This document shows, piece after piece, positions 20,079 to 51,840 of a DNA stretch of 64,000 nt. Both the position numbers and the translations under genes were made by a program. The notes under the pieces were generated by a model. It saw nothing but the letters and a program-made list of their open reading frames with translations. It did not search any database and had not been told where the DNA came from. The DNA comes from Marispirochaeta sp. (GTDB taxonomy: Bacteria; Spirochaetota; Spirochaetia; JC444; Marispirochaetaceae). The stretch covers positions 1,088,001 to 1,152,000 of the forward strand of contig CAXXFF010000002.1 of the NCBI GenBank assembly GCA_963676835.2, read 5' to 3'. Numbering within the stretch: position 1 is the first letter of the stretch; each line of letters begins with the position of its first letter.

Positions 20079-20236
20079 GAATGCATGATAGGATGGTGGG
20101 TGCCGGGAGGTCAAGTTTCCGGAAAGAGACAGATTTATGTGGTACCCTGTGGAGTGTTTCCTTTTTTTCAGACATCTGATAGTCTGTTTGCCAACCTTGA
20201 GTCGGCCTATGGCCGAGTAGCAAAGGAGTCGTATTG

Positions 20237-23200: not shown

Positions 23201-23584
23201 GAAGACGGATCACTGCTGCGCATTCCGAAAGATCCCTCGGAACCGGTATTTATGGAAGGGCCAGAGGTTTTCCGCAAGGCGGTTTCCGCCATGGCAGAGA
23301 TTCTCAAGGATGCCTGCAAGGTTGCAGGAGTCAGTCCGGACGAGCTCGATCTGGTTGTTCCCCATCAGGCAAACCAGCGGATTATCGATGCGGTACGGCA
23401 GAAGCTCAGGGCGGATAAGAGCAAAGTTTACAGTCTTATTTCCGGCATCGGGAATATCTCCTCTTCAACCATTCCGTTCTGTCTGGAACGGCTGCTTGAA
23501 GAGAAACCGGAAACTGAGCTTCTCGGCCTTACAGCCTTCGGCGGCGGGTTTACCTTTGCCGGCGGAGTGTTGAAGAAAATCTGA
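20237..23584 (+). CDS. Fusion protein: 2-oxoacid dehydrogenase E1alpha + E1beta + lipoyl domain + FabH (KAS III)
   Basis: TPP motif GDG..DN, RLSSHT..DD; E1beta FGEDI, SPLAE, QFADF, GPFH; lipoyl EADKA; KAS III AACSG, PHQAN, GNISS, FGGG. Confidence 0.93.
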   Translation: MQNRISPENLQYFLSLYTSMFTAREIDRIEESYTQRGEAFFHVSGAGHEAIAALAQHLTPEDWLHCHYRDKSLMLARGMDASMFFHALFNKDASHSRGRQMNAHMSDPALNILSLVGPVGNSGLQAAGVAQAVKDNAGSPVVLCSLGDGMSQQGDVLEAIAHSVRAELPVLYVIQDNGFAISTRTGGNTFYRTPDGLADSFYGIPITHFDGRNAVEADRVFKETVEKMRSDRRPAILIMQVERLSSHTNADDQRVYRSEDEIEAARSTGDPVAILRGLLLEAGASEDEFEEKEAEIRKELEQAARESQLGPEPAAVHDAVKPYPESLKAVGEISAVDGEGDPHTMIETLRETLSMRMADDERVILFGEDIEDPKGDVFGVTRGLSQKYPGRVINSPLAEASIAGISGGQALAGKRPVAFLQFADFLPIAFNQIISELGSMYWRTDGGWETPVIVMISCGGYKPGLGPFHAQSMDGVAVHTPGVDVFMPSRADDAAALLNAAFASERPTLFFYPKNLLNSRDFATKKDPAQLLLSPGKARTVREGSDITLIGWGNTVVHCTRAAESLAAAGASAEVIDLRTLAPWDKEAVIASASKTGKVIVVHEDNHSAGMGAEVISTIAEGCSTPVECRRVTRGDTFVPCNFANQLEVLPSYSRVLEAAVDMLGGSIVWKKEEDESGELYGLEAVGSSPSDEVATIIEWLVKEGDSIEEGQEVAELEADKAMITLSSPVAGVISSIDVPDGESVNVGTVIAKVRLPQGSVRIKPITREEPGTPEISGLKTGPAAAGPVMQTGAVAAIAGVRSSLGGRLVSNKEISELCPTWSEADIVKRTGIQERHWVGEGENAVTLTTDAASKLLDDMNIGVEEIDLIICSTTTPFMNTPALATMVQYELNKKYGADCSCAAYDINAACSGYVYGLQIAYDYLAQRPAEKVLVLTADVLSDRIDTADPSTAPVFGDGASASLVVGSGLIGSIGKLEVKRPVLSAKGEDGSLLRIPKDPSEPVFMEGPEVFRKAVSAMAEILKDACKVAGVSPDELDLVVPHQANQRIIDAVRQKLRADKSKVYSLISGIGNISSSTIPFCLERLLEEKPETELLGLTAFGGGFTFAGGVLKKI

Positions 23585-35861: not shown

Positions 35862-35900
35862 TTGTGAGAATCTCACAGTCAAATTGTGAGGTTCTCCTAT
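35862..35900 (+). repeat. 39-bp direct repeat, copy 1 (palindromic upstream block)
   Basis: TTGTGAGAATCTCACAGTCAAATTGTGAGGTTCTCCTAT. Confidence 0.9.
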
Positions 35901-37132: not shown

Positions 37133-37248
37133 TGCGGTGGTTGAGCGTAGTCGAAACCACCTGTTTCGCTGCGGGGATGCGGTTTCGACTTCGCTCAACC
37201 ACCTGTTTCGCTGCGGGGATGCGGTTTTGGCTCCGCTCAACCACCGCA
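37133..37248. repeat. REP/BIME-like composite palindromic element
   Basis: 15-bp terminal IRs TGCGGTGGTTGAGCG/CGCTCAACCACCGCA; internal 42-bp tandem duplication; unit GGTTGAGCG.AGTCGAAACC in both orientations. Confidence 0.85.
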
Positions 37249-37308
37249 TTTATCAGGTGAGTGTTGTCAGTCGTCCTCACTCCACTAAGGTTCTGTCTGT
37301 CTTTGTTT

Positions 37309-37347
37309 TTGTGAGAATCTCACAGTCAAATTGTGAGATTCTCCTAT
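37309..37347 (+). repeat. 39-bp direct repeat, copy 2
   Basis: TTGTGAGAATCTCACAGTCAAATTGTGAGATTCTCCTAT, 38/39 identical to copy 1. Confidence 0.9.
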
Positions 37348-37409
37348 ATCTCTACCCCTGTCTTTTCGCGAAAATAGAAGCAAATGGTTCGATTATCCGG
37401 AGTTCGTCT

Positions 37410-38141
37410 ATGAAAGTACATTCCGATCCATGTCTGCAGAATCTCTTTCGCGGCTGGCAGGGCGCGGCGCCTTCCGGGGCGGGGGTTATCTTCCTCGGCC
37501 TCGATGCCAACTGGCCGGATCCCCTGATTAACCTTGGTAACAGGATTATTGATATCTATGAATACCTCGAAGACGGTGCTGCCTGGTGGCACCGGACGGG
37601 GCTGCACCATCCTCTGGCGGATATGAAGGATGTTCCCGGATATTCTTACCACAGAAACTTCCGCAAGCTGGAAATACCGAAGGAGATGGCGGAGGAAATA
37701 AGCTTTGTGGAACTCTACGGGTATGCAACTACCGGGAATCACAATGAAGGGCCGGTAAAAATTGAAACTGTGGCAGACTGCTCCGATGAGCCGCAGGAAA
37801 TACCCGGGGCAAATGTTTTAAACAACTGCTGTCATCATAGAAACCTGGAACGCTGGCTCTGCCGGGACGATGTCCTGGTGTGTCTGCCTTATGGTCAGGT
37901 GGCGAATCTTGCGAAACTGGTTCCCTGTATGGCGGAAAAACTGCCTGCTCCCGGTGAGGTTTTGCGGAATGAACTGTGGCGCCGTAAAAACATCTGTGTT
38001 CATACCCATTTATCCGCAAGTTCGGGGATTTCTGATAAACATATAAACGAGATTTCCGCCCTGATTCATTCGTGGATAACCTGGCGGATAAATAAAAAGA
38101 TAGAATCAACGCTGCAGGAGTTTTCAGCTTCCGGGCGGTAA
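37410..38141 (+). CDS. Hypothetical protein
   Basis: ATG at 37410 after GGAG; the 5' part of the tracked ORF runs through repeats and is probably non-coding. Confidence 0.65.
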   Translation: MKVHSDPCLQNLFRGWQGAAPSGAGVIFLGLDANWPDPLINLGNRIIDIYEYLEDGAAWWHRTGLHHPLADMKDVPGYSYHRNFRKLEIPKEMAEEISFVELYGYATTGNHNEGPVKIETVADCSDEPQEIPGANVLNNCCHHRNLERWLCRDDVLVCLPYGQVANLAKLVPCMAEKLPAPGEVLRNELWRRKNICVHTHLSASSGISDKHINEISALIHSWITWRINKKIESTLQEFSASGR

Positions 38142-38361
38142 AAATTGTATGAGGTGCAAGTTCTTTCTGTTTAGCCACCGCGATAGTAAAGCAATAGAGA
38201 TATGCGTAGCGCTGAATTCGCATCACCGTGACTGGAACAAAGTGATCAGTTTGCCGCAATAATCATTTAAAAAGTTTGCAGCAGTCCGGATAATCCGCCA
38301 ATAATAAAGTAGTACCATCAAAAGTATCTATCCGGAAAATCAACACTGGTGAGAGGATTGA

Positions 38362-41097
38362 ATGCAACGTTTTGTAATACTGTTTCTGCTGACTGTTTTT
38401 ATTTTCTGTCCGATATTTGGAGATGACACCCAATCTCGAACCGCCCTGATAATCGGCAACTCAAACTATGCATCTTCCCCCCTGAAAAACCCGGTGAATG
38501 ATGCCTCCGCAATGGCGGAACGGCTCTCCACCCTCGGATTTGATGTTACCCTGAAAACGGATGTAAGCCTTTCCGAAATGGAGTCTTCTGTACGGCGCTT
38601 TGCGGCGGATCTGGAAAAAAATAAAGGCGTGGGGCTTTTTTTCTACGCCGGCCATGCGGTTCAGGTGGACGGCTACAACTATCTTATTCCCCTGGGCCCC
38701 GGGATAGAATCGGAAGAGGAAATCAAGTTTCATGCCTATAACGCAGGTCAGATACTGGAGAGTATGGAGGGAGCCGGGAACGGCGCCAATCTGATATTTC
38801 TGGATGCATGCAGGGATAATCCCTTTGCCGCATCTTTCCGCAGTTCCAGCCGGGGACTCCGAATGGTGGAAGCTCCTTCGGGGTCTCTGATTGCCTATGC
38901 CACGGCGCCGGGTAAAACAGCTGCAGATGGGGAAGGTTCCAACGGAGTGTTTACTGAAGCTCTGCTGAAACACATTGAAGAACCGGAAATCGATGTGGAG
39001 GTTCTGCTGCGGGATGTCCGGGCTGAAGTGATTGAAAAGACAGACGGGAAACAGACTCCCTGGACTTCGTCATCCCTGATTACTCCCTTCTATTTTGCAG
39101 ATTCCGCCCTGATCCTCTCCCGCATAGCTGCCCGTAAAGAGGCGGTTTCCGCAGAGCTTGTTACGATCAACGGTGAGATTGAACGACTTACCAGGGCACG
39201 CAATTCTGCTGTCTCGGATTCTGAACGCAGAAAGCTTGAGCTCGAGCAGAATGCCCAGGCTGCAAAACTGGAAGCCGCCCGTCTTGAGGCTGAACAGCTG
39301 CAGCAGGAAGAAGCACGGCAGAAGCTTGAGGCGGAGCAGCGGGCTAAAGAAGAGGCTGCCAGAACCCGGGCCCTGGAAGAGGAAAGGTCTCAGCAGGCGA
39401 ATCTTCTCGCGGAAGCTGAGCAGAAGCGGAAGGAGATGGAATCCCTGAAGCAGGCGGGAGAAGATCCTGATCTGCTTCTGGATAACATCCATTCCCTGGA
39501 GGAGGCGATTAAGGATATTGAACGCTCCTTCAATTCGGCCTGGTCTGCAATATCCCGTGAAATATCTTCTACTTATCAGCTGAAAAAAGAAGCTGTTGAT
39601 ACCATTGAAATGGACCCCTGGGAGAGTGATGCGGAGTTTAATGAACGCATCGGGAAGCTGAAAAACAACCTCACTACCCAGGAGCGTAGTGAGCTATCCA
39701 GTCGCCGTGTTTCCCATGATAAAAGCCTGGAGGAACAGCTTGCAGACCTGAAGCGCCGTCTGTCAGAGGCTGTCCGTTCTCTGGAGACAAAACGCTGGAC
39801 CCTTTCCGGCAGCGAAGTAAATCTGACACCCTATGATTTTAACCGGGATACCAAAGAGTGGGCATTCTGTGTTGAATCGCTCGAGCGCTCGGTGCCCTTT
39901 AAAACTGTTCTTTCAGTCTCGTTGGCCGAAGCGGAAGACCTGCGTACTGCGTATCAGATTATTGATACTGCAATTAAAAGCTCTGCCCTGTCGGGCAGGA
40001 TAGAATATGCCTACGATCACCGGACTGAGTATTCCGGTTCTGTTTCCATGTATGATCTGCAGGTAAAATCTGTACGAATAATTGATCTGCTGGATAACAA
40101 CAGCATTGTTGTTCAGGATAACGCCTCTACAATTATCAGCACCTTTGGAGGTATTGATCAGCGGAAAGAGCCGCTAAACCGGTTTTCCAATATACGATTC
40201 TGGTGCAGTGATACTCAGCTTGATGTCTATTATAAAGGTGCCTTACTTGGTACGACCCCCTTCAGTACCAATCTGTTTCTGGAGGGACAGTATCCACTGC
40301 TGTTAAAGACAAAAAACGGAAAGACTCCCGGAGGCACCCGGGTTGTACAGGTTCCCGGAGGATCAAATAGAAGTGTCCAATTGGAAACTCCCTTTGTGTA
40401 TGTGCAGGGAGGGTTCTTCAAGATGGGGGACCCCCGGGGATCTGCGGATGAAAAACCGGAGCATAGTGTATATGTTTCTTCTTTTATAATGGCCAAATAC
40501 GAACTTACAAAAGGCCTACAGCATGAAGTATTGGGAAGGTATGGCTCGGTGAGCGAAGCAGACCGTGAAAAGCCTGCCACCTATATTTCCTGGATTGATG
40601 CTCTTGAATTCTGCAATAAACTGAGTAATCAGGAAGGGCTGGAACCTGTGTATACCGTCAATGGCAGTTATGTGCATTGGGATAAAGATAAAAACGGTTA
40701 CCGGCTGCCAACAGAAGCTGAATGGGAATATGCTGCCAGGGGCGGTGCGTTGAAGGATGATGTAAATTACTCCGGCAGCAGTGATTTAGGCATTGTCGGT
40801 TGGTATAAAAATAATAGTCACGAACAGCTTCAACCCGTGGGGCGGAAGAGGCCCAACGGCTTGGGGCTCTATGATATGAGCGGTAATGTCTGGGAGTGGT
40901 GCTGGGATCGATATGGAGAATATACTTCTTCCACCGCTTCGGATCCTCAGGGGCCCTATTCCGGTGACAGCCGGGTACTTCGAGGCGGGGATTATAATCA
41001 GAGTGCCTCCTATTGTGATGTATATAACAGGTACGATAAAGAACCGGGAGAGCGGTCCACCACAATAGGCCTGCGGCTGGTGCGGAATGCGGAGTAG
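38362..41097 (+). CDS. Secreted caspase-like (peptidase C14) protein with coiled coil, PEGA-like and FGE-sulfatase (SUMF1) domains
   Basis: Signal peptide; ALIIGN.NY, YAGHA, LDACR; RLPTEAEWEYAARGG, GLYDMSGNVWEW, RGG..G.RLV. Confidence 0.9.
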   Translation: MQRFVILFLLTVFIFCPIFGDDTQSRTALIIGNSNYASSPLKNPVNDASAMAERLSTLGFDVTLKTDVSLSEMESSVRRFAADLEKNKGVGLFFYAGHAVQVDGYNYLIPLGPGIESEEEIKFHAYNAGQILESMEGAGNGANLIFLDACRDNPFAASFRSSSRGLRMVEAPSGSLIAYATAPGKTAADGEGSNGVFTEALLKHIEEPEIDVEVLLRDVRAEVIEKTDGKQTPWTSSSLITPFYFADSALILSRIAARKEAVSAELVTINGEIERLTRARNSAVSDSERRKLELEQNAQAAKLEAARLEAEQLQQEEARQKLEAEQRAKEEAARTRALEEERSQQANLLAEAEQKRKEMESLKQAGEDPDLLLDNIHSLEEAIKDIERSFNSAWSAISREISSTYQLKKEAVDTIEMDPWESDAEFNERIGKLKNNLTTQERSELSSRRVSHDKSLEEQLADLKRRLSEAVRSLETKRWTLSGSEVNLTPYDFNRDTKEWAFCVESLERSVPFKTVLSVSLAEAEDLRTAYQIIDTAIKSSALSGRIEYAYDHRTEYSGSVSMYDLQVKSVRIIDLLDNNSIVVQDNASTIISTFGGIDQRKEPLNRFSNIRFWCSDTQLDVYYKGALLGTTPFSTNLFLEGQYPLLLKTKNGKTPGGTRVVQVPGGSNRSVQLETPFVYVQGGFFKMGDPRGSADEKPEHSVYVSSFIMAKYELTKGLQHEVLGRYGSVSEADREKPATYISWIDALEFCNKLSNQEGLEPVYTVNGSYVHWDKDKNGYRLPTEAEWEYAARGGALKDDVNYSGSSDLGIVGWYKNNSHEQLQPVGRKRPNGLGLYDMSGNVWEWCWDRYGEYTSSTASDPQGPYSGDSRVLRGGDYNQSASYCDVYNRYDKEPGERSTTIGLRLVRNAE

Positions 41098-41180
41098 CTT
41101 AACCTGACACGTTCAGAACATGACTGGAGCTGTCGGTAATTCGTCGAGCTGCAAATGGCAGTTCTGCGTGTAAATAGAGA

Positions 41181-41210
41181 ATAAATTTTTTTAATCAATC
41201 TTTTTCCCAC
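41181..41210 (+). promoter_or_regulatory. Shared upstream motif, copy A
   Basis: ATAAATTTTT-TTAATCAATC-TTTTTCCCAC. Confidence 0.6.
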
Positions 41211-41282
41211 TGACTGAAATATATGCCGGAGTACGGAACCAAAGCTGCCGTGGGGAGACGCAATATATCAGGAGAAGATTAT

Positions 41283-43454
41283 ATGAATATAACAGATGTG
41301 AAGGAAAGTATTAAAGCATTAAAGAATCCGGATCTTGATATTGGCGTTCTTGAGAAAAAGATGAGCGAAATTGCTCAGTTTTTTCATACAAACGGGGCGC
41401 CGGATAATAATGAAATCTTTTCCTGGTTCGGCGACCTTGTTCCACAGTATGCAGTGAGTGACACTGACAGCTGCACCAGGCTGAAGGATATTTTCGGCGA
41501 AATATTTTCCCGACGGGGATCACGGCGGGAGCGCAGGCTAAGGCTTCGTGAGCTTGAGGCTCTTCTCGATTTTTATCGCCGCTACAGTTCCGCCTCTACG
41601 GCTCTATTTGAATGGCTTAACGAAAACGGTGAGGGCGGGTTGGATATCAGCAGCCTGAATCACGAACTCTTCAGTATAGAAGAGGGAACAGAATCAGACC
41701 TGCAGGCTGGTTTCCTTTCTCTCCTGGCAGAACTATCACCCCGCTTTTCTGTAGAATGGATAGAGCAGATGCAGGCTCTGCCTGTACAGGGGAAACTCAC
41801 CCTCCTTGAGCTGCCACCGCTTGAGGAGCTGACCGGCATACTGTTTGAGCTTCAGAATAGAGCTCGAAGGGAGGGCTTACTTGCTTTGGAGGATGTTCTG
41901 GAGCAACTGCCGCCGCTGTTAACCGCTTTTTTCCGGCTGGTAGTGGACGGGACACCCCCGGACCTTCTCGATTCAGGTATGGACCGATATTTTTCCAGCC
42001 TGGAACGGCGACTGAATGAGTATCAGGAGATTGTTGCCGATGGGGCGCAGATGGTTGCGAAAGGGATAAACCGGATGGTAATCGAAGAGCTCTGCCGGAA
42101 GCCTTCAATGCTCAACCTGTTTTCCAGTCCCGATGAGGCTGCTTCGATGGAGGGCGGCGCCAGGAACGGTTCTGGTTTGAATAGTGAACAGGATTCTATC
42201 ATCAATATTCTGATTTCAATGGCAGATGTCACACGGAGGGAAGGTTTGCTGGCTCTGCAGTGGTTCCCCACAGAGGGGCTGCCCGATGCATTAATAAACC
42301 TGCCCGAAATAATCCTCGAGTGTGCTGATGATTCAGATTTGTTAGGCTATATGCTCGCCAGGATCTTCTCTCAACTTAAAGATACTCTCTTTCATGCCAA
42401 AATGATTACCACCAGTATGATCCGGATTATCTATCAGGGGGAAAGCCCGTCTGCTTCGGAGGATCTTTTTAAGATTATCTCCGGCAGGACTGAAGGGACA
42501 GCCGGATTTTCCGGTATAGCGGATATGGTGGTGGATTGTGTGCGGAACAGTGAGCAGCCTTTTCAGCTCCTGCTCCATCTGCAGGATTACTGTACTGCTG
42601 CAGCCGACTATGCGGGAGCACTGCGGCGTTTAAGCCATATGGCAGAGGATAAAGAACTAACGGCACTTTTAACAGCGCAAATTGAAGAGCATGGAGCCTC
42701 TTTTCCCTCTCTGGTAAGAGATAGGAAAGCCCAGCTAATTTGTATTAACGGTGAAGAAGAGGCTTCCCTCAGGCGTATAGAAATGCAGATTAATACGTAT
42801 AAGATTGAACAGGATAAACGTGATGCGGAAAAAACACCCGCATTGGAGAATCTTCATCTGATTGCAGATGCGGAAAAACTGGAGCAGTTTTCCCTTTTTC
42901 TACTGGAGAGTTATGCCCGCCGGCAGCAGGAGCAGGAGAGAGTTTTTTCTGAGTTAAGGAATGCGGAAAGAGCCCGGATACAGACCGCCGCCGGAGAGAT
43001 CTTCGGCCGGGAATTACCGGTTTTTGAATTTACCGGTGAGGATACAGAAATTACCTATGCAGAAAAACTCTTTCCCCGCAGCCGTGTGGGGATGGCGGCA
43101 CTTATTCGTGATCGATTTTCCGATGAGGACGTGCAGAATCTTCTGGCAAAGATGACTGTGTTTAATGATGTTCTGCTGCTGAATGATCGCGATATGCAGA
43201 AGCTGCTGCGGGAGCTAGCCATTGAAGATCTCGCTCTTGCTTTAAAAGGGGCCGACGAAGAGGTTGTTGAAAAGTTCTACAGGAATATCTCGCAGAGAGC
43301 AGCCGCCGTCCTTCAGGAAGAAATGGTGTATATGGGTCCTGTTGCGGTTACGAAGGTTCGGGAGGCTCAGGATCGCATACTTCAGATTTTGCAGAAGCTT
43401 GAAGAGCAGGGTGAAATTACACTCCCCTGCCCGGAAGGTGAAGGATGGGTGTAG
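41283..43454 (+). CDS. Soluble protein with two MotA-like cytoplasmic segments and a FliG C-terminal domain
   Basis: ARREGLLALE..LVVDG and TRREGLLALQ; C-terminal FND...L.DRDMQK.LRE...LALALKGA..NISQRAA..LQEEM..MGPV...V.EAQ..I...LEEQGEI; RBS AGGAG (alternative start 41223). Confidence 0.82.
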   Translation: MNITDVKESIKALKNPDLDIGVLEKKMSEIAQFFHTNGAPDNNEIFSWFGDLVPQYAVSDTDSCTRLKDIFGEIFSRRGSRRERRLRLRELEALLDFYRRYSSASTALFEWLNENGEGGLDISSLNHELFSIEEGTESDLQAGFLSLLAELSPRFSVEWIEQMQALPVQGKLTLLELPPLEELTGILFELQNRARREGLLALEDVLEQLPPLLTAFFRLVVDGTPPDLLDSGMDRYFSSLERRLNEYQEIVADGAQMVAKGINRMVIEELCRKPSMLNLFSSPDEAASMEGGARNGSGLNSEQDSIINILISMADVTRREGLLALQWFPTEGLPDALINLPEIILECADDSDLLGYMLARIFSQLKDTLFHAKMITTSMIRIIYQGESPSASEDLFKIISGRTEGTAGFSGIADMVVDCVRNSEQPFQLLLHLQDYCTAAADYAGALRRLSHMAEDKELTALLTAQIEEHGASFPSLVRDRKAQLICINGEEEASLRRIEMQINTYKIEQDKRDAEKTPALENLHLIADAEKLEQFSLFLLESYARRQQEQERVFSELRNAERARIQTAAGEIFGRELPVFEFTGEDTEITYAEKLFPRSRVGMAALIRDRFSDEDVQNLLAKMTVFNDVLLLNDRDMQKLLRELAIEDLALALKGADEEVVEKFYRNISQRAAAVLQEEMVYMGPVAVTKVREAQDRILQILQKLEEQGEITLPCPEGEGWV

Positions 43455-43516
43455 TGCCCTGACAACGGCGGAGTCAGGGGATGCCATTTCGACTCCCTGA
43501 AAGGTTTTGAAAACTT

Positions 43517-46198
43517 CTATACATTCACATCAAACCAGAACGCCGCCGCTTCCTGCTCAATCCCGGCTGTCATCCCACGCCATATCGCGCCGTACTGCAT
43601 CTTCTCCGCGGCAAACTCCATGTTCAGTTCATTTGTCAGCCGGAAGACGCGGTATTCTCCGGGATCATGTTCACCGGTCAGGTTATTGCGTATTATCCTG
43701 GGTACATACAGCGGGGCGTCGCCGTCAATAAGGTGATATTCGCCGTACCCGGGAATCCCTGGTCCTGCAGCGCTGTCATTTGCCCTGAAGACTGTATCCA
43801 GAATGGGTTGCAAGGTTTCATCCGGCAGTTCCTGCTCCATCAGCCACTCATAGGCCATTCTGTTGGCTGCAGCTTCTTCAAGCCGGCAGAAGTATCCGGC
43901 CTTGTCCGCATGCATGTGGCTGCAGGCATCGTTGCCAAGCACTGTTTCCATAAAAGTGTGGAATAGTTCATGCACTGCAATTGAGCGTATAAGGGGCTCT
44001 ATACTCTCTCTATCCAGGCCTTGTCTGTGAATCAGTTCTATTATTCTGACTGCATTGAAGTATATTCCCGAGCGGTGCTTACGTTCATTGTCCAGGGAGC
44101 AACGCAGCAGATAGCAGGCGAAATAATCGGCGGTTTCTTCCGGGCCGGTTTTATCAAAAACTATCGGTTCCCTGCCTGCAGGTTCGCTCTTCAGCCGGTT
44201 GAGTATGGTTCCTATCTGGCCGGTAGATTCTGCAGCCCGTAATTTTCTGGGGTCCGGGCCTTCAAAAATTTCCCGTATCATCTGGTGCTTCCGGCTGGGG
44301 TCTTTTCCCGGTTCCGGGCTGCTCATTTGTTCAGCTTTCTCTGCAGATAGAGCCCGGGCTTTCTCCAGGGACTCTTCCAATGCGGAACTTCCGGCGGTGC
44401 TCTGTTTAAAAAGAGATACCACCTCCGACAGACTTAAGGGCCCCGGCTGGCGTGGTGATACCGGGGGCTGTTCCGGCTTTTCCGGTTCTGCCGGAATAAG
44501 CGGTTCTGCTGCTGCCGGGTCTTTTTGCCCGGGTAAATCAAGGGTGCTTTTCATGGTAAAGGTGGTCAGCCCTTTTATGTCTGGAGGCGCTTCGGGAGCT
44601 TTAAGGTCTGCCAGAACGCTGTTTTCTTCTTTGAATCCAGCAAGAAAACCAAGGAGTTCATGGTCTTCCTTTTTTTCAGCCTCCTCTCTCAATGCTTTTG
44701 CCAGTCTGTAGGCGACGTTTGGAGGTTGACAGGCTTCTAAGAGGCCTGTCAGTCCGTCGAGGTTGAAAAATCCGCCGTCCTTTCCATCTTCACCTTTTTC
44801 TTCCTGAATAAAGGATTTGAGAGATCCGAAGTTGATTCGGAACTTCCTGTCCTCCTCGGAAATGTCTTTTCCACTGGCAAAGGGGTTGCTTGTGGCTGGA
44901 TTGTCCTGCAGGGTGGCTCTCATTTTGTTCTGGCAGGATTCAAGTGAGTAGCCCGTCCGTTCCGCGGTGAGCAGAATATCAGTGCCTAATAGCTTTACAT
45001 AGGTGCTCTGATGATCAAGAAGCTTTGTGACAACCTGGAGCTGGTTCTGATTAATTTTTTTCTCACTGACTATTCTAAGCATCAGCGGGGTAAAGGCTTC
45101 GGTAACTGTGTGGTAGGCAGACGGTTTGTGCAGACTTCCGGGAAAGGGTCTGCTTAAAAATTCTATACCCGATATAAACGGATCGGGAACTGCAGTACTG
45201 CCGGATAGAATGAACTCCGCAAGCCCGAGCTGAAGCAGGGCAGCCTCTTCGTAGGTATTGTTTTTTAAGGGCGATTGATTTTGAAGAATCCTAACCAACG
45301 GCGGGTTTCTCCGGATGGTATCACTGTTGAGATACAGGCCCGCAAGCCGAATAAGATGATTTCGCAGCAATGGCGAATCGCCTGTAAGCAAGTTTGAGAA
45401 CTCAGTCAGGGGGATTGGAAAATCTGCACCGGTATTTCCGGCAACGGTAAAAACCCAGTCCAGTTCGGTATCGCCGATCCTGCCGGACACAAGCAGATCA
45501 ATCCAGCCCCGAACCCGGCGCTTAACAGTTTCAGTTGTTTTTATTCCGGCGGTATAGGCTTTGCGGGCAGCGTTGAGAAAGGATGTGTAGTTTTCGCAGC
45601 GCAGCTTAAGCACATCTTTCCAGGACTCTATTTCCGGGTAGATCCTTAAAGGGTCGTTCCAGCCGGATATGGCGGCGAAAATACGGTCCCACACCCAGGA
45701 GCTCTGTTCTGTTGCTTTTGCTGTGCGGATAAGCTCTTCAATTTTGTCATCCATGTCGGAAGCGGAAAGCATAAGGTTTATGGCGGCCCAGTATTTCCTT
45801 CCCCGCAGCCGTTCTTCCTCTTCGGTTTCCGGATGAGCACAGAAGCGTACCAGAAACAGCACATCATCATCGGTTTCCGCTTCTCCGAAGAGGCCGAAAA
45901 TCTCTTTGCTGATCTCTATGGATTGGGCCGCAGTATAGTAAAGGTTCAGCAGCGCCTTTTCGCTGAGAAGGTCGTTTCCGGCAAAAAGACAGGCTCCCAG
46001 AAATTCTGTAATATTTTTTTCGGGTACGGATTCGCTTTTCCCGGTGTTGTAGATTTCCTTTTGGATTTCCAGCAGTTTTTCTTCGTCCTTCTCAGTGGAA
46101 AACCCGAGGCTTGCAAGAAGCTCAATTGCCGGTTCTCTGTTATTCTCAGGCTTGTCCGGGGAAAACTTTATTAATGACATTGAAGCCTCCTGCGCCAT
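43517..46198 (-). CDS. Large hypothetical protein: helical N-terminal region, Pro-rich linker, C-terminal HExxH metallopeptidase-like domain
   Basis: 893 aa; IAVHELFH (HELFH at 43958-43972) followed by LEEAAAN. Confidence 0.7.
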   Translation of the reverse strand: MAQEASMSLIKFSPDKPENNREPAIELLASLGFSTEKDEEKLLEIQKEIYNTGKSESVPEKNITEFLGACLFAGNDLLSEKALLNLYYTAAQSIEISKEIFGLFGEAETDDDVLFLVRFCAHPETEEEERLRGRKYWAAINLMLSASDMDDKIEELIRTAKATEQSSWVWDRIFAAISGWNDPLRIYPEIESWKDVLKLRCENYTSFLNAARKAYTAGIKTTETVKRRVRGWIDLLVSGRIGDTELDWVFTVAGNTGADFPIPLTEFSNLLTGDSPLLRNHLIRLAGLYLNSDTIRRNPPLVRILQNQSPLKNNTYEEAALLQLGLAEFILSGSTAVPDPFISGIEFLSRPFPGSLHKPSAYHTVTEAFTPLMLRIVSEKKINQNQLQVVTKLLDHQSTYVKLLGTDILLTAERTGYSLESCQNKMRATLQDNPATSNPFASGKDISEEDRKFRINFGSLKSFIQEEKGEDGKDGGFFNLDGLTGLLEACQPPNVAYRLAKALREEAEKKEDHELLGFLAGFKEENSVLADLKAPEAPPDIKGLTTFTMKSTLDLPGQKDPAAAEPLIPAEPEKPEQPPVSPRQPGPLSLSEVVSLFKQSTAGSSALEESLEKARALSAEKAEQMSSPEPGKDPSRKHQMIREIFEGPDPRKLRAAESTGQIGTILNRLKSEPAGREPIVFDKTGPEETADYFACYLLRCSLDNERKHRSGIYFNAVRIIELIHRQGLDRESIEPLIRSIAVHELFHTFMETVLGNDACSHMHADKAGYFCRLEEAAANRMAYEWLMEQELPDETLQPILDTVFRANDSAAGPGIPGYGEYHLIDGDAPLYVPRIIRNNLTGEHDPGEYRVFRLTNELNMEFAAEKMQYGAIWRGMTAGIEQEAAAFWFDVNV

Positions 46199-46334
46199 GA
46201 ATTATAGTCATATAGTTCCATTGGTAAAATAGTCGGGGAGCATTCATATTTACGGCAGAATTTTAGATACAGCAAAGAGTGAACTCCTTACCGCCGATGC
46301 CGACTTTGATGCACTGCTTAAAAGGCGCGCTCCT

Positions 46335-47066
46335 GTGTCTGATCTTGCCGACTGTATCCGTACACGTTTTTTTCCCGTTGCATTTCTGTATGCCCATACA
46401 ATTCTCCGCCGCAGATTCTCCGGAGAAGAACTCTATGACCGCTCGGCGGAGCTGGCGCAGAAGGGGATAAATGATCAGCTGCACAGGCTTGCAGCTGGAG
46501 AGTTCAACTTTGCCGGAAGAAGTAAATACTCTTCTTACCTCTACGGCATTCTTGTAAAAATGGTAAACGCCCGGGTCAAAACTCCTGTCCCGATTATGCG
46601 AAAAGGATTCCCCGCCCATGAGGTGTATCAGATGGCCTTTGGCGGATGGTCCGACCGGGAAATTCTGTCCGAGATGGTCTTTAACCGTGGAGCGCAGGAA
46701 GCTGCAGTAAAGAAAGCCATTGCCGACACACGGAAATACCTGGCGGAAAAGAGTCCCAAAGAATATGATGCGGATATTACCCTTGAATCCTACGATGCAA
46801 TACTCGAGGAGCCTGCCTTGGGCAGGGAACCGGGAACCCGGAGTTCTGCCCTGGATGATGTTATTCATGCGGAAACCTATGAAGCTCTGCATGATGCCAT
46901 AGATTCCCTGAACGATACCGAAAGGCAGCTTATCGAAGACCATTTCTTTATGGAGCAGCCCCTTAAGGAAATCGGGGCAAGGCTTTGTATTACAAATCCT
47001 GTGTACGAAAAGAACAAAGCTCTTCAGAAAATGGGCAGCAGTCTGAGAGACCGTCTTCCGGAATAA
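46335..47066 (+). CDS. Atypical sigma-70/ECF-like factor
   Basis: Region-4 HTH LHDAIDSLNDTERQLI...FF.EQPLKEIGARL....KALQKM; region-2-like SKYSSYLYGI; start uncertain (frame open from 46233). Confidence 0.7.
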   Translation: MSDLADCIRTRFFPVAFLYAHTILRRRFSGEELYDRSAELAQKGINDQLHRLAAGEFNFAGRSKYSSYLYGILVKMVNARVKTPVPIMRKGFPAHEVYQMAFGGWSDREILSEMVFNRGAQEAAVKKAIADTRKYLAEKSPKEYDADITLESYDAILEEPALGREPGTRSSALDDVIHAETYEALHDAIDSLNDTERQLIEDHFFMEQPLKEIGARLCITNPVYEKNKALQKMGSSLRDRLPE

Positions 47067-47083
47067 ACTCCGAGAATCCCGCA

Positions 47084-49258
47084 TCATGCAGCTCCGGAGA
47101 AACCAACAGGCCGGGAGATTCCGCCCTGTTTTTCTTTCACTTCCTCTTCGAGTTCATGTATGGCCTCTTCGATAGCGGGCTTGTCGATGCCGGAGAATAA
47201 GAGACGCTCTGAGGCTGCCTTGAAGTCTCCGGGAGTGAGCTGAAGAAGGGAATCAAGCCTTTTTACGGTTTCCCTGTCTTCAGTGTCTAAAGAGCATTCG
47301 GGAAAATACTTCCTGAACAGGGTCATTCGTCCTTCCCGGTCCAGAGGATGAAATTCAACCTTGAAGGTGAAGCGCCGCATTACCGCGGCATCCAGGATTT
47401 CTTTGAGGTTGGTGGTGCAGAAGAAGAGACCGTTGAACTCCTCCATGCAGGTTAACAGTTCATTTACCTGGGTTCGCTCCCAGGAGTTGCGGGCGTCGTT
47501 CCGGTCCGCAAGAAAAGTGTCCACTTCATCGATGAGGAGAATGCTGTTTGACTCCTCCGCTTCCTGAAAGGCATCCCGAATATTTATCTCTGTTTCGCCC
47601 ACGTACTTGCTTAAAAGGTCGGAAGAGCGCCTGGTTATAAGGGGCAGTCCGCTCGTTTCTGCAACATGTTTTACGAAGGCGCTTTTTCCGGTGCCGCTGA
47701 GACCGTACAGGAGGGTGCTGATTCCCCGGTTTATACGGCCGTCCCGAAAACCTTCGGCGGCAGTTATCAGGCGTTCCACTGGGGTGCTGGTGTTGAGGGC
47801 GGAAAGTTCATAGCGGGATTCTCCGCTTTTTACCGGGCTTATTTTTCCGCCGGTAAGACTCATGTGCCGTTTGAGGAGAGTATCCAGGGTTTCCCGAACC
47901 ACGGCTTCGCTCATCTTCTTTCTTCCTGCAATACTCTTCAGGCTCTTCAGTGCTATGGCAATCAGTCCCGGGGGAGCTTCGTACCGCCCTGCGAAATCAG
48001 CAGCCATTTCATCGGAAATCAGGTGTCCCGCCGGGCTGGATTTAATTACGGAATGCCACTCCTTCAGGCGGTGAGAGGCGCTTTTTGTTTTGAACTCCAT
48101 GGAAAAATTGAACCGCCTGAGAACCGCTTTGTGAACAGCGGAGATGGAATTGCTTATCCATACAACATGGGCCTTGTAAGCCTCCATGACTGTGATAATC
48201 CACGCTTTATCTATGCCGTCTATTTTGAACAGGGACTCTGTATTCAGCAGAAAGTCCATCTCGTCAGCAATTAAAACTGCCTGCTCCCGTTCGGCCTGGA
48301 TTATTCCCATGAGCAGGGCTGCCCGTTTTGTTTCTGTATTATCATCTACCGGCATGTTCAAAATAAAAACCTTTCTTCCCGATTCTCCCGCAAGGGAACG
48401 GGCAAGTTCAGTCTTTCCTGTTCCCGGTTTTCCATGAAAAAGAATGTGAGCAGGAACAGCCGAAGAAAGCAGTCTGGAGAGTATTTTTATATCCTGTCCG
48501 GGGATGGAGAAACTTTCGAGAGAAAATCTTTCACCCGTATCACGGCTGCTGAAAAGTCCTAATTTCAGATCCATGTTTTTGGTGAAAAAAATCTGCTGAA
48601 CCTGGTCAATAAGGCCTTTTTCAGTAAATTGCTGAGCGTTACTGTTCTCTAACAGCCCGCTGGACCCGATGCTTCCCTGTGGTTTTGTCCGTTTCATTAA
48701 TTCATGGAGGGGCAATCCTGCAGCCCGGGCTGCCAGGTCATTACTCAGGGAGGTGCGGCCGTTGTTGAAGATGTTATCCAGAATACTTGAATGTTTGTAG
48801 AAATAGAGAAGGGCCAGGATCGAGAGGTCTTTATCATCAAAGCGAAAAACTGACTTGAGCTGTTCAAACTGCCGGGGATAGGCGGATACCTGTTCACTGT
48901 ACCGGGGAGTGCCATCCCAGATATCTATGAGAATTTTCATTGTGGCAACTGCTGAGAGTTTACACTGTTTATCTCTCCACATATCATCAATGGTGTCTGC
49001 TATGGAGTTCGGTGAAGAGAGGTTGCAGTTCATTAATTCTGCATAATCAATCTCCTCTTTGCCCTTGTAGGATGATACGGTTTTAACCAGTCTGCGCCTG
49101 TCAGAGAGGGGCATCAGCTTGAGGTAGTCTTCCAGAATACTCATGTCCATTTTAAATGCACCCAACAGGTTTGACATGAAGTAGCGTATTACCGGTGCAA
49201 AGCGCTGCATGGCGTTGGTGATCCTTCGACGTGTTCTCTGGTTTCCGGTTGCAGTCAT
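47084..49258 (-). CDS. AAA+ ATPase with two AAA modules
   Basis: GKPGTGKT/LIADEMD/RRF and GLSGTGKS/LLIDEVD/TTN..D.A.MRRF; RBS AGGAGG. Confidence 0.92.
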   Translation of the reverse strand: MTATGNQRTRRRITNAMQRFAPVIRYFMSNLLGAFKMDMSILEDYLKLMPLSDRRRLVKTVSSYKGKEEIDYAELMNCNLSSPNSIADTIDDMWRDKQCKLSAVATMKILIDIWDGTPRYSEQVSAYPRQFEQLKSVFRFDDKDLSILALLYFYKHSSILDNIFNNGRTSLSNDLAARAAGLPLHELMKRTKPQGSIGSSGLLENSNAQQFTEKGLIDQVQQIFFTKNMDLKLGLFSSRDTGERFSLESFSIPGQDIKILSRLLSSAVPAHILFHGKPGTGKTELARSLAGESGRKVFILNMPVDDNTETKRAALLMGIIQAEREQAVLIADEMDFLLNTESLFKIDGIDKAWIITVMEAYKAHVVWISNSISAVHKAVLRRFNFSMEFKTKSASHRLKEWHSVIKSSPAGHLISDEMAADFAGRYEAPPGLIAIALKSLKSIAGRKKMSEAVVRETLDTLLKRHMSLTGGKISPVKSGESRYELSALNTSTPVERLITAAEGFRDGRINRGISTLLYGLSGTGKSAFVKHVAETSGLPLITRRSSDLLSKYVGETEINIRDAFQEAEESNSILLIDEVDTFLADRNDARNSWERTQVNELLTCMEEFNGLFFCTTNLKEILDAAVMRRFTFKVEFHPLDREGRMTLFRKYFPECSLDTEDRETVKRLDSLLQLTPGDFKAASERLLFSGIDKPAIEEAIHELEEEVKEKQGGISRPVGFSGAA

Positions 49259-49289
49259 TATTCCTCCTGAATATCTTCTGTTCTCTTTA

Positions 49290-49319
49290 GTGGGAAAAAG
49301 CGGCTGAGAAAAAAACTTT
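49290..49319 (-). promoter_or_regulatory. Shared upstream motif, copy B
   Basis: Minus strand AAAGTTTTTT-TCTCAGCCGC-TTTTTCCCAC. Confidence 0.6.
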
Positions 49320-49331
49320 TTCCGGGTTTTT

Positions 49332-49547
49332 TCAGAAACCCAGCATGTTCCGTTCCCAAAAGGGGCTGAAAACTCTCTTTGTCCATGAATCTGAATGATG
49401 CTGAAGTCTGCGTCCGCAGACGGGGCAGTTTCCGTTTTTGCCGTAACAGCTTGAACAGCGGATAATTTCAGGGTGAAAGCTGCAGCTGTAGTGCTCGTCG
49501 TTGGCGGTGTCGATCTGTGTTTTGCAGTCGATACAGGATTCGCTCAT
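49332..49547 (-). CDS. Small Cys-rich putative zinc-finger protein
   Basis: CIDC, CSFH, CSSC, CPVC; RBS GGAGG. Confidence 0.7.
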   Translation of the reverse strand: MSESCIDCKTQIDTANDEHYSCSFHPEIIRCSSCYGKNGNCPVCGRRLQHHSDSWTKRVFSPFWERNMLGF

Positions 49548-49578
49548 GTGTTCCTCCATTCTTGTTCATCTTCTGTTG

Positions 49579-49608
49579 GTGGGAAAATCTGATGGGGGAA
49601 AAATATTT
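49579..49608 (-). promoter_or_regulatory. Shared upstream motif, copy C
   Basis: Minus strand AAATATTTTT-CCCCCATCAG-ATTTTCCCAC. Confidence 0.6.
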
Positions 49609-49662
49609 TTTCAGGCGGTGATTAGGTGGAGAAACGTGACTGAAAACAGAGAGCTTGATTAT

Positions 49663-49730
49663 TGCGGTAGTTGAGCGGACATGTACTGAGTAGAGCTTGC
49701 ACTGAGCGCGGTCGAAGTGGTCGAAATCAC
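49663..49730 (+). repeat. Nested, degenerate copy of the 37133 REP family
   Basis: TGCGGTAGTTGAGCG (14/15 match) ... CACTGAGCGCGGTCGAAGTG ... GTCGAAATCAC. Confidence 0.65.
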
Positions 49731-49731
49731 A

Positions 49732-50163
49732 TCACGCCGGATCAATGACCTCAAAGAATCCGAATTCCTCAAAATCTTTTACATTCCTTGTATGGAATTC
49801 CTTTACGCCATTCTCTTTCAGGACAACCGCCAGCTTTGCATCAAAGCACCTCCGTGGAGGAAACTGCGGGTTTTTCCACAGGGTATCCAGACTTTTCATC
49901 ATATCCGGCTCCCAGGCGCAACGGAGCCAGCCGCTTTTGTTGCGGTACCAGTCCACAGCACCGGCAGCTTGTTCCGCATTAAGGGGTTTTTCCAGCACCG
50001 TGCTGTTACGCAGCAGCCGGTACAGTTCAAACCAGACCTGGTCAGCTATTATCCACTCCCGGGGCCGGCTCAGAGCCTTTTCTATCAGTGTGCGGCAACT
50101 ATCGTATTCTCTGCAGTCGCTGTTCAGGGCATAAAACAGAACATTGGTGTCGAGGCTTTTCAC
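49732..50163 (-). CDS. vapC: VapC/PIN toxin
   Basis: SLDTNVLFYA, E, FDAKLA, TRNVKDF. Confidence 0.92.
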   Translation of the reverse strand: MKSLDTNVLFYALNSDCREYDSCRTLIEKALSRPREWIIADQVWFELYRLLRNSTVLEKPLNAEQAAGAVDWYRNKSGWLRCAWEPDMMKSLDTLWKNPQFPPRRCFDAKLAVVLKENGVKEFHTRNVKDFEEFGFFEVIDPA

Positions 50164-50411
50164 TATTTCCGGGTTCCATCAGTTCTATCTGTGTAGGCAA
50201 TATCCCGAAGAGTGGAAGCATCAGCCGTGACATGCCCGCAGGAATACACCGGCGGAGCTTCATTGACGGTACTATCTTCTGCACCATAGCGGGAAAGCCA
50301 GAGATCGACAGCGCTGCGTATGAGTTCGCTCACCGGCCGGTCCTGGCTTTTTGCCATCCGCCGTAACCGCTCAAGCTGAGGTTCAGGAAAAAGTATCTGC
50401 ATTCTTTCCAT
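50163..50411 (-). CDS. CopG/RHH antitoxin
   Basis: MERMQILFPEPQLERLRRMAKSQDRPVSELIRSAVD; upstream palindrome ATACAG-N7-CTGTAT. Confidence 0.85.
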   Translation of the reverse strand: MERMQILFPEPQLERLRRMAKSQDRPVSELIRSAVDLWLSRYGAEDSTVNEAPPVYSCGHVTADASTLRDIAYTDRTDGTRK

Positions 50412-50481
50412 GTATACAGTATATTGCTGTATGTCACAGTCGGTCAAGTTTTGCAGACAGGCTCTTTCCGCTAAACCATCC

Positions 50482-51840
50482 TCACTTCTGTTTCAACTTT
50501 CGGTACAGCGTCGCTTCGGATATTCCCAGGAGTGCAGCAGCCTTTTTCCGGTTGCCGCCGGTTTGCTCGAGAGCTTCTTCTATTGCTTTCTGCTCGTAAC
50601 TGCGGATGGAATGGGCAGATTCTGCACTCTCTTCCGGTTTGTCGAATGCCTGCTCCGTGCTGGTGATATTCTCCGGAAGATTGCACAATTCTATGCGGGC
50701 GGTGGCGGAAAAAACTATTGCCCGGCGGATTACATTCTCCATTTCCCGTACATTACCGGGCCAGTCGTAATTTATCAGATATTTTAAGGCTTCTGCTTCG
50801 ATATCCGTTACCGGATGATGCTGATTTTCTTCTCCATAGAGATCGATAAAATGACGGACAAGCAGGGGAATATCGTCGGCTCTGTCTTTGAGGGCGGCAA
50901 TATTTACCGTAATGGTACTCAGGCGGAAGTAAAGGTCCTCTCTGAAGGTCCCCTCTTGTGATGCGGCAAGAATGTCCCTGTTACTGGCAGCCAAAAACCG
51001 TACATTAACGGAGGTTGACTTGCTGGCCCCCACGGGCCGAATTTCCTGTTCCTGAAGGACTCTAAGCAGTTTTGTCTGAAGAAGCAGAGGCAGCTCTCCT
51101 ATCTCATCGAGGAACAGGGTTCCTCCGTCAGCCTCTTTAACCAGACCGTCATGGGCCTCTGTGGCCCCGGTAAAGGCACCTTTGCGGTAGCCGAACAGTT
51201 CACTCTCTATGGTACTTTCGTTAATGGCGCCGCAGTCCACAACTACAAATGGAGCATCCCGGCGGCTGCTGTGGGCATGCAGGGCCCGGGCGACAAGCTC
51301 CTTACCGGTGCCGGTATGTCCCTGAATAAGCACAGATAAATCGCTTGGACCGACGGAAAGTATGGTTTGCTTCAGGCGCATCATTGATTCCGAGTTTCCC
51401 ACCAGCTTTCCGTATTCAAACTGGCTGAAGAGGATTTTCCGCAGTTCCGCAGTCTCCTTCTCCAGTTCCCAGATTTTTCTAAACTGCTGAACCCGGGAAA
51501 CCAGCATTGCATTGGATACCGGCTTTTCCAGCACATCGTCTGCGCCGTTCTTTATCAAAGAGACTGTATCCTGAACGGTGGCATTCCCGGAAATCACGAT
51601 AACATTAATGTTCTGATCAATCTCTTTGATTTGTTTCAGAACCTCGTGGCCGGTAAGCTCCGGCATCTGTAGATCCAGAATTACCAGATCCGGGGGCTGT
51701 TCCGATGTCTGCCGTAGAGCTTCCTTGGGCTTTTCAAAGCAGTGAATGGAATCAATTTCCTTATGCAGGGTGCGCTTGTAGGCATTTAGGATATTAACTT
51801 CATCATCGACGCAGAATACCGTAAAACCGCTGTTTTCCAT
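50482..51840 (-). CDS. Sigma-54-dependent response regulator (NtrC/AtoC type)
   Basis: [38 protein letters not shown], Fis HTH. Confidence 0.95.

Follow-up and report, generated by a model that had tools for sequence, protein, structure and literature searches.

Can a small gene island carry both a sigma factor and the promoters that this factor reads? The question is raised by a 64,000-nucleotide stretch of the genome of Marispirochaeta sp. (Spirochaetota; GenBank assembly GCA_963676835.2, contig CAXXFF010000002.1, positions 1,088,001 to 1,152,000 of the forward strand), which we refer to as the window. It holds an island in which a caspase-FGE protein, a MotA/FliG chimera, an HExxH protein, a sigma factor, a double-AAA+ ATPase and a Cys/His-rich predicted zinc-finger protein are encoded in this order, followed by a PIN/RHH pair, and in which a 30-nt motif occurs three times. 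Here we report that the motif is real and private to the island. On the basis of sequence comparisons, we consider that it is, on balance, probably a private promoter read by the island sigma factor, which would co-induce the chimera, the ATPase and the zinc-finger protein. Codes beginning with G and L denote the other genomes and loci that were compared; G000 is the genome of the window.

A motif confined to the island

The original prediction claimed a thrice-repeated motif, AwAnwTTTTT-N10-wTTTTCCCAC, with identical spacing and sense orientation at each occurrence, and all three 30-nt sites are present as described. Site 1 (41181..41210, plus strand), an A-rich box followed by a T-tract, 10 nt, a second T-tract and CCCAC, is the predicted promoter of the chimera; it ends 12 nt before an ATG at 41223 and 72 nt before the ATG at 41283, which has a ribosome-binding site. 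Sites 2 (49290..49319) and 3 (49579..49608) are on the minus strand and end 31 nt upstream of the ATGs of the ATPase (49258) and the zinc-finger protein (49547), both of which have a ribosome-binding site; as was also claimed, these two sites have AACAGAAGAT and GGAGGAA in common. Site 2 is conserved before a sister ATPase in G629, and the congener G004 keeps site 3 with one change in the core.

A search of both strands of the whole 4.43-Mb genome, of the kind that the prediction called for, recovered the 30-nt pattern three times, always in the island and in sense orientation upstream of a gene, rather than frequently at random intergenic sites; the 9-nt core TTTTCCCAC alone has 71 matches. 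As the pattern was drawn from these same three sites, we applied non-circular tests. When each site in turn was left out of the matrix, it still ranked among the best 428, 8 and 28 of 8.86 million positions. With sites 2 and 3 fixed, site 1 ranked first of 2,247 upstream regions (crude gene calls), with 17 of 31 columns shared, a number reached by 5 of 60,000 random triples and 79 of 26,418 neighbouring triples; the top 40 of the latter were inspected and are repeat arrays. Congeners that lack the sigma factor show no motif excess (9 matches versus 16 for a control pattern in G004, and 0 versus 2 in G003). An integron or repeat cassette was rejected, as the motif is directional, non-palindromic and unlike the true repeat arrays of the genome, and so was a terminator, because none of 15 terminator-like sites coincides with a motif site.

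The repeat arrays include one with elements that end in GTTATA, which is found before many genes (G000 contigs C3:10207-25653 and C1:3723-9062) and is presumably integron-cassette-like; further arrays lie at C2:335850-337836 and C2:559997-569975. The genome has just two copies of a further motif, the near-palindrome TGTGAGAATCTCACAG and its conserved tail (window 35863-35878 and 37310-37325); they lie ahead of a lipoprotein gene and inside, or ahead of, the next open reading frame (ORF). This motif is also found at a syntenic site in G003 (L023:7880-7917), before an unrelated gene, and is likely to be an operator.

The motif in other lineages and its candidate sigma factor

Other genomes and loci were scanned with a two-box matrix for which the three window sites were the only training data. 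In G629, a site of 23.0 bits lies 38 nt before an operon of the sister ATPase and its Cys-rich protein; it scores above all 3,864 non-training upstream regions of the window genome (highest, 19.6 bits) and is the best of the 35 ATPase loci that we examined outside the window. In L055, a site of 23.4 bits, a score that none of 300 shuffles reached, lies 33 nt before a homologue of the HExxH gene. The 14-kb sigma locus of G524 has exactly three matches of at least 12 bits, all in sense orientation before genes (the HExxH gene, a 383-aa gene and an exonuclease-like start). A further 33.5 kb of G524 DNA contains no such match, and 200 local shuffles of the locus gave 0 (194 times) or 1 (6 times) match of at least 14 bits. 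A pattern search for the G524 sites gave three matches, all in the sigma contig, and none in four other genomes, a circular result that is a sign of exclusivity only. The starts of the two T-tracts are separated by 16 nt in the window, in L055 and in G524, and by 17 nt in G629.

The motif is thus present in all three loci of one sigma subclade that have upstream DNA (G000, G524 and L055; SH-aLRT support of 90 in a quick tree). This count omits L054, which holds a C-terminal fragment of the sigma only, and L056 has no upstream DNA. No clear motif site was found in G590 and G455, the sigmas of which fall outside the subclade; a look-alike leader noticed by eye in G590 stays below 9 bits with the matrix and matches of 14–17 bits in G455 are in A/T-rich DNA, and neither was counted. 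Co-occurrence of the motif with sigma homologues, one of the checks named with the prediction, holds in the three subclade loci but not in G629, in which no sigma of the family was found (genome 78% complete, 760 contigs).

The sigma factor (46233..47066, plus strand) had been described as an atypical sigma-70-like protein. The gene is there, and we refine the description to a likely FliA/WhiG-derived factor with a sigma3-sized middle domain, rather than an extracytoplasmic function (ECF) sigma. Its family profile aligns end to end with WhiG (positions 28–254, E = 5.9e-7) and with the FliA of the same genome (228 columns, probability 94%), compared with 43–77 columns for the ECF-sized sigmas of that genome; because of these alignments, we regard the protein as a likely, if divergent, group-3 factor derived from sigma28 (FliA/WhiG). 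A family-invariant proline, kept in 21 of 21 members, falls on the WIPR motif of the FliA/WhiG alignment, sigma2 aligns to that of WhiG and the aromatic motif FSxYL of region 2.3 is nearly invariant in the family. The predicted structure has three domains, with a predicted local distance difference test (pLDDT) score of 86. Its sigma4 model matches solved sigma4 domains (Z of 9.3–10.2, root-mean-square deviation of 1.6–2.6 Å over 67–77 residues), and Pfam Sigma70_r4 is above its cut-off. The protein scores 20 bits where the curated FliA cut-off is 201 (PRK06986, NCBIfam), and its region 4.2 is shortened. ECF sigmas commonly have their target motif before their own gene, which is not the case for the island sigma. 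They consist of sigma2 and sigma4 only, as group 4 without sigma3 (PMC7826278). An ECF identity was dropped on the basis of the full-length WhiG/FliA alignment, the folded middle domain and the short alignments of ECF-sized sigmas.

The sigma family comprises 16 representatives at E values of up to 1e-10 among 1.84 billion sequences. It is found in 4 of 401 genomes of the class, is full-length in 1 of 401 genomes of the phylum (that of the window) and was found in none of six kin genomes. On contig C1, the genome also encodes MotA and a FliA-like protein of its own, and no FlgM-like gene was seen in the island. Small acidic ORFs, absent from the window, directly follow the out-of-subclade sigmas of G590 (L060:10487-10760) and G455 (L062:10354-10660) and are candidate anti-sigma factors.

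Several features of the motif fit a promoter: it is directional, the distance from its end to the start codon is 21–38 nt (72 nt for site 1) and includes a ribosome-binding site, and its T-tracts are 16–17 nt apart. The upstream box matches 5–7 of the 8 bases of the sigma28 −35 octamer TAAAGTTT, in slightly different registers; the downstream box is unlike GCCGATAA, which none of the three window sites has. The window sites therefore resemble the sigma28 consensus TAAAGTTT-n11-GCCGATAA (PMC2859248; see also PMC12784957) only partly, in the upstream box. In our proposal, the A-rich/T-tract box would be the −35 element, read by sigma4, and the second T-tract with the C-rich run would form the −10 region, read by sigma2/sigma3.

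The divergent sigma-70-like gene and the HExxH gene that were predicted between the sites are both present; the divergent pair consists of these two genes, and neither has the motif. A sigma70-like promoter match (10 of 12; 46201..46228, minus strand) precedes the HExxH gene, at a position that holds the motif in L055, and a TGn-TAAAAT-like element was seen by eye upstream of the sigma gene. From such ordinary promoters, both proteins would be made at a basal level. The sigma genes of G455 and G524 start 6–7 nt past a TATAAT/TACAAT hexamer, as if leaderless (L062:9555-9570 and L061:10365-10380); the window has GGG at about that position.

Predicted peptidase, motor chimera and ATPase

The HExxH gene (43517..46198, minus strand) encodes an 893-aa predicted metallopeptidase and predicted sigma regulator with a C-terminal HExxH..EE zincin-like domain. 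HExxH and EEA are invariant in all five aligned sequences; matches to the zincin fold are weak (Z of 6.3 at best, from a low-confidence model with a pLDDT of 60), and the ESM Atlas yielded only leads under 0.9. The domain is found in 2 of 401 genomes of the class (G000 and G524, in which the homologue has an E value of 2e-17), beside the sigma in both. In L055, the sigma is divergent from a homologue of the N terminus of the HExxH protein (E = 1e-13). An HExxH or M48-type peptidase gene adjoins or lies near the sigma in all five loci with flank on that side (G000, L055, G524, G590 and G455), the assignment in G590 being a motif read in translation only. From this proximity, and by analogy with the CASP-sigma system discussed below, we infer that the predicted peptidase may gate the sigma through stress-dependent proteolysis, in the manner known for protease-gated defence sigmas.

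The chimera (41223..43454, plus strand; likely start, 41283) is a soluble 723-aa chain of two membrane-less MotA heads and a C-terminal FliG_C domain (Pfam FliG_C, E = 3.7e-30; MotA profile, E = 1.5e-19). It has no transmembrane segment, its highest hydropathy is 1.16 compared with 2.12 in real MotA, and there is no motB among its neighbours in the window. The heads also align weakly to the C-terminal helix of MotA. The charged MotA motif RREGLLALE is kept in head 1, its final E is replaced by Q in head 2 (RREGLLALQ) and the FliG torque helix is retained; we take the charged residues of the motif to face FliG. With these elements kept, a brake or decoy is a natural suggestion: the induced chimera could occupy stator–rotor contact surfaces and, as speculatively, the ATPase could remodel or recycle stator–rotor complexes. 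Spirochaete flagella are periplasmic, which makes the blocking of flagellum-binding phages an unlikely purpose.

The design of the chimera is itself widespread. With the G524 homologue as the query, soluble MotA/FliG_C fusions were found in clusters labelled hypothetical in Bacillota and Pseudomonadota; the MotA match of the G524 chimera is weak (E = 1e-4 over 28 residues). In a search of 300 phylum genomes with the MotA head, the best 150 of 156 matches were the window and otherwise frames of MotA size (256–298 aa). The window genome encodes a second membrane-less MotA head (E = 9e-7), fused to an extended repeat-like region, next to clustered caspase-FGE paralogues (G000:C2:1243726-1246035); there is no motif site there. 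Two further loci of G524 contain motor-derived genes. In L097:2409-5935 (G524:C82), the gene for a FliM fused to a FliG middle domain overlaps the beginning of a double-AAA ATPase gene, with Macro, Nudix, WYL, MotA-head and RecT/Gam-like genes close by, and L098:1424-9918 (G524:C210) clusters two MotA-head proteins, a phosphoesterase, another sigma4-bearing protein, an ADP-ribosylglycohydrolase and a double-AAA ATPase.

The double-AAA+ ATPase (47084..49258, minus strand) has intact Walker A and B motifs in both modules and a C-terminal VGF motif. Its family occurs in 32 of 401 genomes, and the G629 ATPase is the sister of the window protein (SH-aLRT support of 93, quick tree). In L056, the sigma gene is convergent on a 40%-identical ATPase gene, the same arrangement as in the window. 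Motor fragments are found at 3 of the 35 ATPase loci, two of them in G524 (membrane-less MotA heads and the FliM–FliG fusion) and one in G452, in which a minimal motor fusion directly follows the ATPase. Genes for WYL, Macro, Nudix and ADP-ribosylglycohydrolase proteins occur in the G524 ATPase loci as well, a context associated with conflict islands. The predicted zinc-finger protein (49332..49547, minus strand; 71 aa) has a 35%-identical homologue directly after the G629 ATPase, with 6 Cys and 1 His in common. It ends in LGF (49332-49340), which resembles the I/V-G-F tail conserved in the ATPase family (window 47084-47105) and could mimic it.

The caspase-FGE gene that flanks the island (38362..41097, plus strand) is of uncertain membership, with several paralogues in the genome; an FGE gene also flanks the G524 locus, in which FGE, the HExxH homologue, the MotA-head/FliG_C chimera and the sigma lie within 7 kb. 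The congener G004 has lost the stretch from 39191 to 49417. The junction breaks both the caspase-FGE gene and the zinc-finger gene, which indicates that an ancestor carried the island and that the stretch was then deleted; in G003, a different gene occupies the syntenic position. The genes do co-occur elsewhere, in that sigma, HExxH protein, ATPase, Cys-rich protein and chimera associate non-randomly in other lineages. The fixed module of the original prediction was not borne out, as the motif precedes other genes in G524 and, among the 35 ATPase loci, only three have motor fragments and only one has the motif.

The assembly is continuous across 37198-51000, which one contig of run X1, possibly the source sample, spans without differences; in run X2, which belongs to a different study, 25 of 30 bins are covered by a related strain. 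A phage or plasmid origin was rejected: viral scans with the ATPase and the sigma gave no match, and in plasmid and phage scans the chimera matched plasmids (20 of 209 records listed) and one phage record, over its FliG end only. Toxin–antitoxin-like modules flank the variable region at 34.5–35.8 kb of the window (by eye) and at 49732-50447 (PIN/RHH, matched by Pfam). Elsewhere in the window, a single 1,116-aa ORF (20234-23584) combines dehydrogenase E1 alpha and beta, a lipoyl domain and a FabH-like synthase.

Alternative readings and known systems

A number of observations weigh against a private promoter read by the island sigma. Sites 2 and 3, which are 289 nt apart and have downstream bases in common, may be one duplicated leader, so independent weight rests on site 1. 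The three G524 sites were spotted by eye before the matrix test, and G000 and G524 are only two genomes. The G524 chimera operon and both of its ATPase genes are not preceded by the motif, 34 of the 35 ATPase homologues lack it, G629 has it without a detected sigma of the family, and regulon membership varies between genomes. The C-rich end is also variable (CCCAC in the window, shifted by 3–4 nt in G524 and GCTAC in L055, which has 31% G+C), so that the shared signal is largely that of the T-tracts. No motif site of at least 8 bits lies upstream of the sigma gene, which implies no autoregulation. The GTG start of the sigma gene (46335) skips a helix encoded upstream in frame, and the protein may thus be truncated here; the frame is open from 46233, matching the first helix of the family, with in-frame ATT codons at 46242, 46248 and 46260. 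The middle domain, a folded three-helix unit of about 60 residues that is sigma3-sized in the model, has no significant match to sigma3 when searched alone (E = 0.08–0.11). The root of the sigma tree is unsupported, and the G524 sigma is a long branch.

The motif could instead be a real promoter or operator read by a host factor, either the core sigma with an activator or host FliA, with the island sigma a passenger or directed at other targets. The G629 site, the genome's own FliA-like gene and the resemblance of the upstream box to TAAAGTTT (PMC2859248) would fit such a factor. It should, however, also have sites at core genes, and there are none outside the island; as congeners without the sigma show no motif excess and the downstream box is unlike GCCGATAA, we consider a host factor unlikely. 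Much of the score comes from T-runs, and the G629 site begins at the end of upstream housekeeping-type DNA, which, with the proximity and common downstream bases of sites 2 and 3, could indicate a leader element that accompanies these genes for structural or historical reasons (bent A/T-tract DNA, duplication of a 5′ leader or a junction from gene capture) and needs no dedicated sigma. But the motif stands before non-homologous genes in hosts of 31–56% G+C, always in sense orientation, with a fixed T-tract spacing and at short distance from a start codon with a ribosome-binding site between, and TTTCCCAC is exact in G000 and G629 despite ATPases that are 31–36% identical; such an element is quite unlikely to be the explanation.

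Very unlikely, too, is a decoy rather than activator role for the sigma-like protein, in which it would compete with host FliA for polymerase or FlgM and, together with the motor mimic, shut down motility while another factor reads the motif. The FliA-like architecture, shortened region 4.2 and uncertain start of the protein would allow this, as would the motor-derived genes nearby, but the protein retains the FSxYL motif of region 2 and the sigma4 fold, and the presence of the motif follows the sigma subclade. Chance likeness of A/T-rich intergenic DNA, for which it can be said that the pattern was drawn after the fact and that 79 local triples reach the same column count, is largely refuted by the first rank of site 1, by the rarity of equal random triples and by matches in three other lineages with a matrix never trained on them, and we hold it to be highly improbable.

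If the private promoter is indeed read by the island sigma, an undescribed sigma28-derived subfamily would be defined together with its promoter. The two would form a pair open to direct testing, in which the −10 region departs from the sigma28 consensus, and possibly an orthogonal switch. The soluble MotA–FliG fusion, a widespread protein design, would then be controlled by a local promoter that can be induced, together with specific partners (ATPase, zinc finger and peptidase), a hint at when the fusion is made and how to test it. A broader and more doubtful idea, which we raise tentatively, is that of a ‘shadow flagellar regulon’, in which parts derived from the flagellar system (a sigma28 paralogue with rewired promoter specificity, soluble stator–rotor fusions and FliM–FliG fusions) would be combined with the double-AAA ATPase and a zincin protease in a mobile switch for stress or conflict, one that jams the flagellar motor, decoys it or senses attack on it. 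If true, it would offer the first regulatory handle on the widespread and unstudied soluble MotA–FliG family.

Locus-encoded sigmas with few local targets are already known. In the literature searched, which included few subscription papers, we found no description of the sigma family, the motif or the chimera, although the supplementary ECF tables of PMC7826278 may list members; nor did we find a sigma28-derived locus sigma with its own candidate promoter and motor-derived targets. The closest parallel in defence is the type III-E CRISPR system CASP-sigma/Csx30/Csx29, in which, according to PMC10028731, a locus sigma lies beside a protease and has three predicted binding sites in its own locus. 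Like CASP-sigma and CalpS/CalpT/CalpL, the island has a locus-encoded alternative sigma beside a predicted protease. Unlike them, it has no Cas genes and no Csx30-like anti-sigma that Pfam and PADLOC scans of the locus proteins could identify, its sigma resembles FliA and not the ECF factors, and the predicted peptidase next to it is zincin-like, where those systems have a CHAT or Lon protease. In ECF-sigma-coupled caspase/EACC2 conflict systems, the sigma gene is found in variable, protease-rich accessory neighbourhoods (PMC8195603), and the out-of-subclade sigmas of G590 and G455 similarly adjoin caspase or CHAT genes; however, a Pfam scan found no DUF1822 or EACC2 match for any window protein, and FliG, MotA and spirochaetes are unmentioned in the main text of that paper. 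The best match of the ATPase in a defence library is IetA of the IetAS system (E = 1.8e-38), but the score is 119 bits where the cut-off is 510, the protein has two AAA modules in 724 aa and there is no S8 protease partner.

The island sigma shares with FliA/WhiG (sigma28; PDB 6pfv, 6pmi and 1rp3) a colinear order of sigma2, middle domain and sigma4, the WIPR proline and, in part, the TAAAGTTT box. It differs in its low score against curated models, its region 4.2, its location outside a flagellar cluster, its patchy distribution (4 of 401) and a candidate −10 region made of a T-tract and CCCAC instead of GCCGATAA. Both sides of the MotA–FliG torque interface (PDB 8ucs) are represented in the chimera, by a cytoplasmic MotA head with RREGLLALE and by the FliG_C torque helix; in contrast to a MotA stator, it has two heads and FliG_C in one chain, lacks transmembrane helices and a MotB, and is encoded outside the flagellar cluster. 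Within the soluble MotA/FliG_C family, the member in the window is set apart by the candidate private promoter under which it stands.

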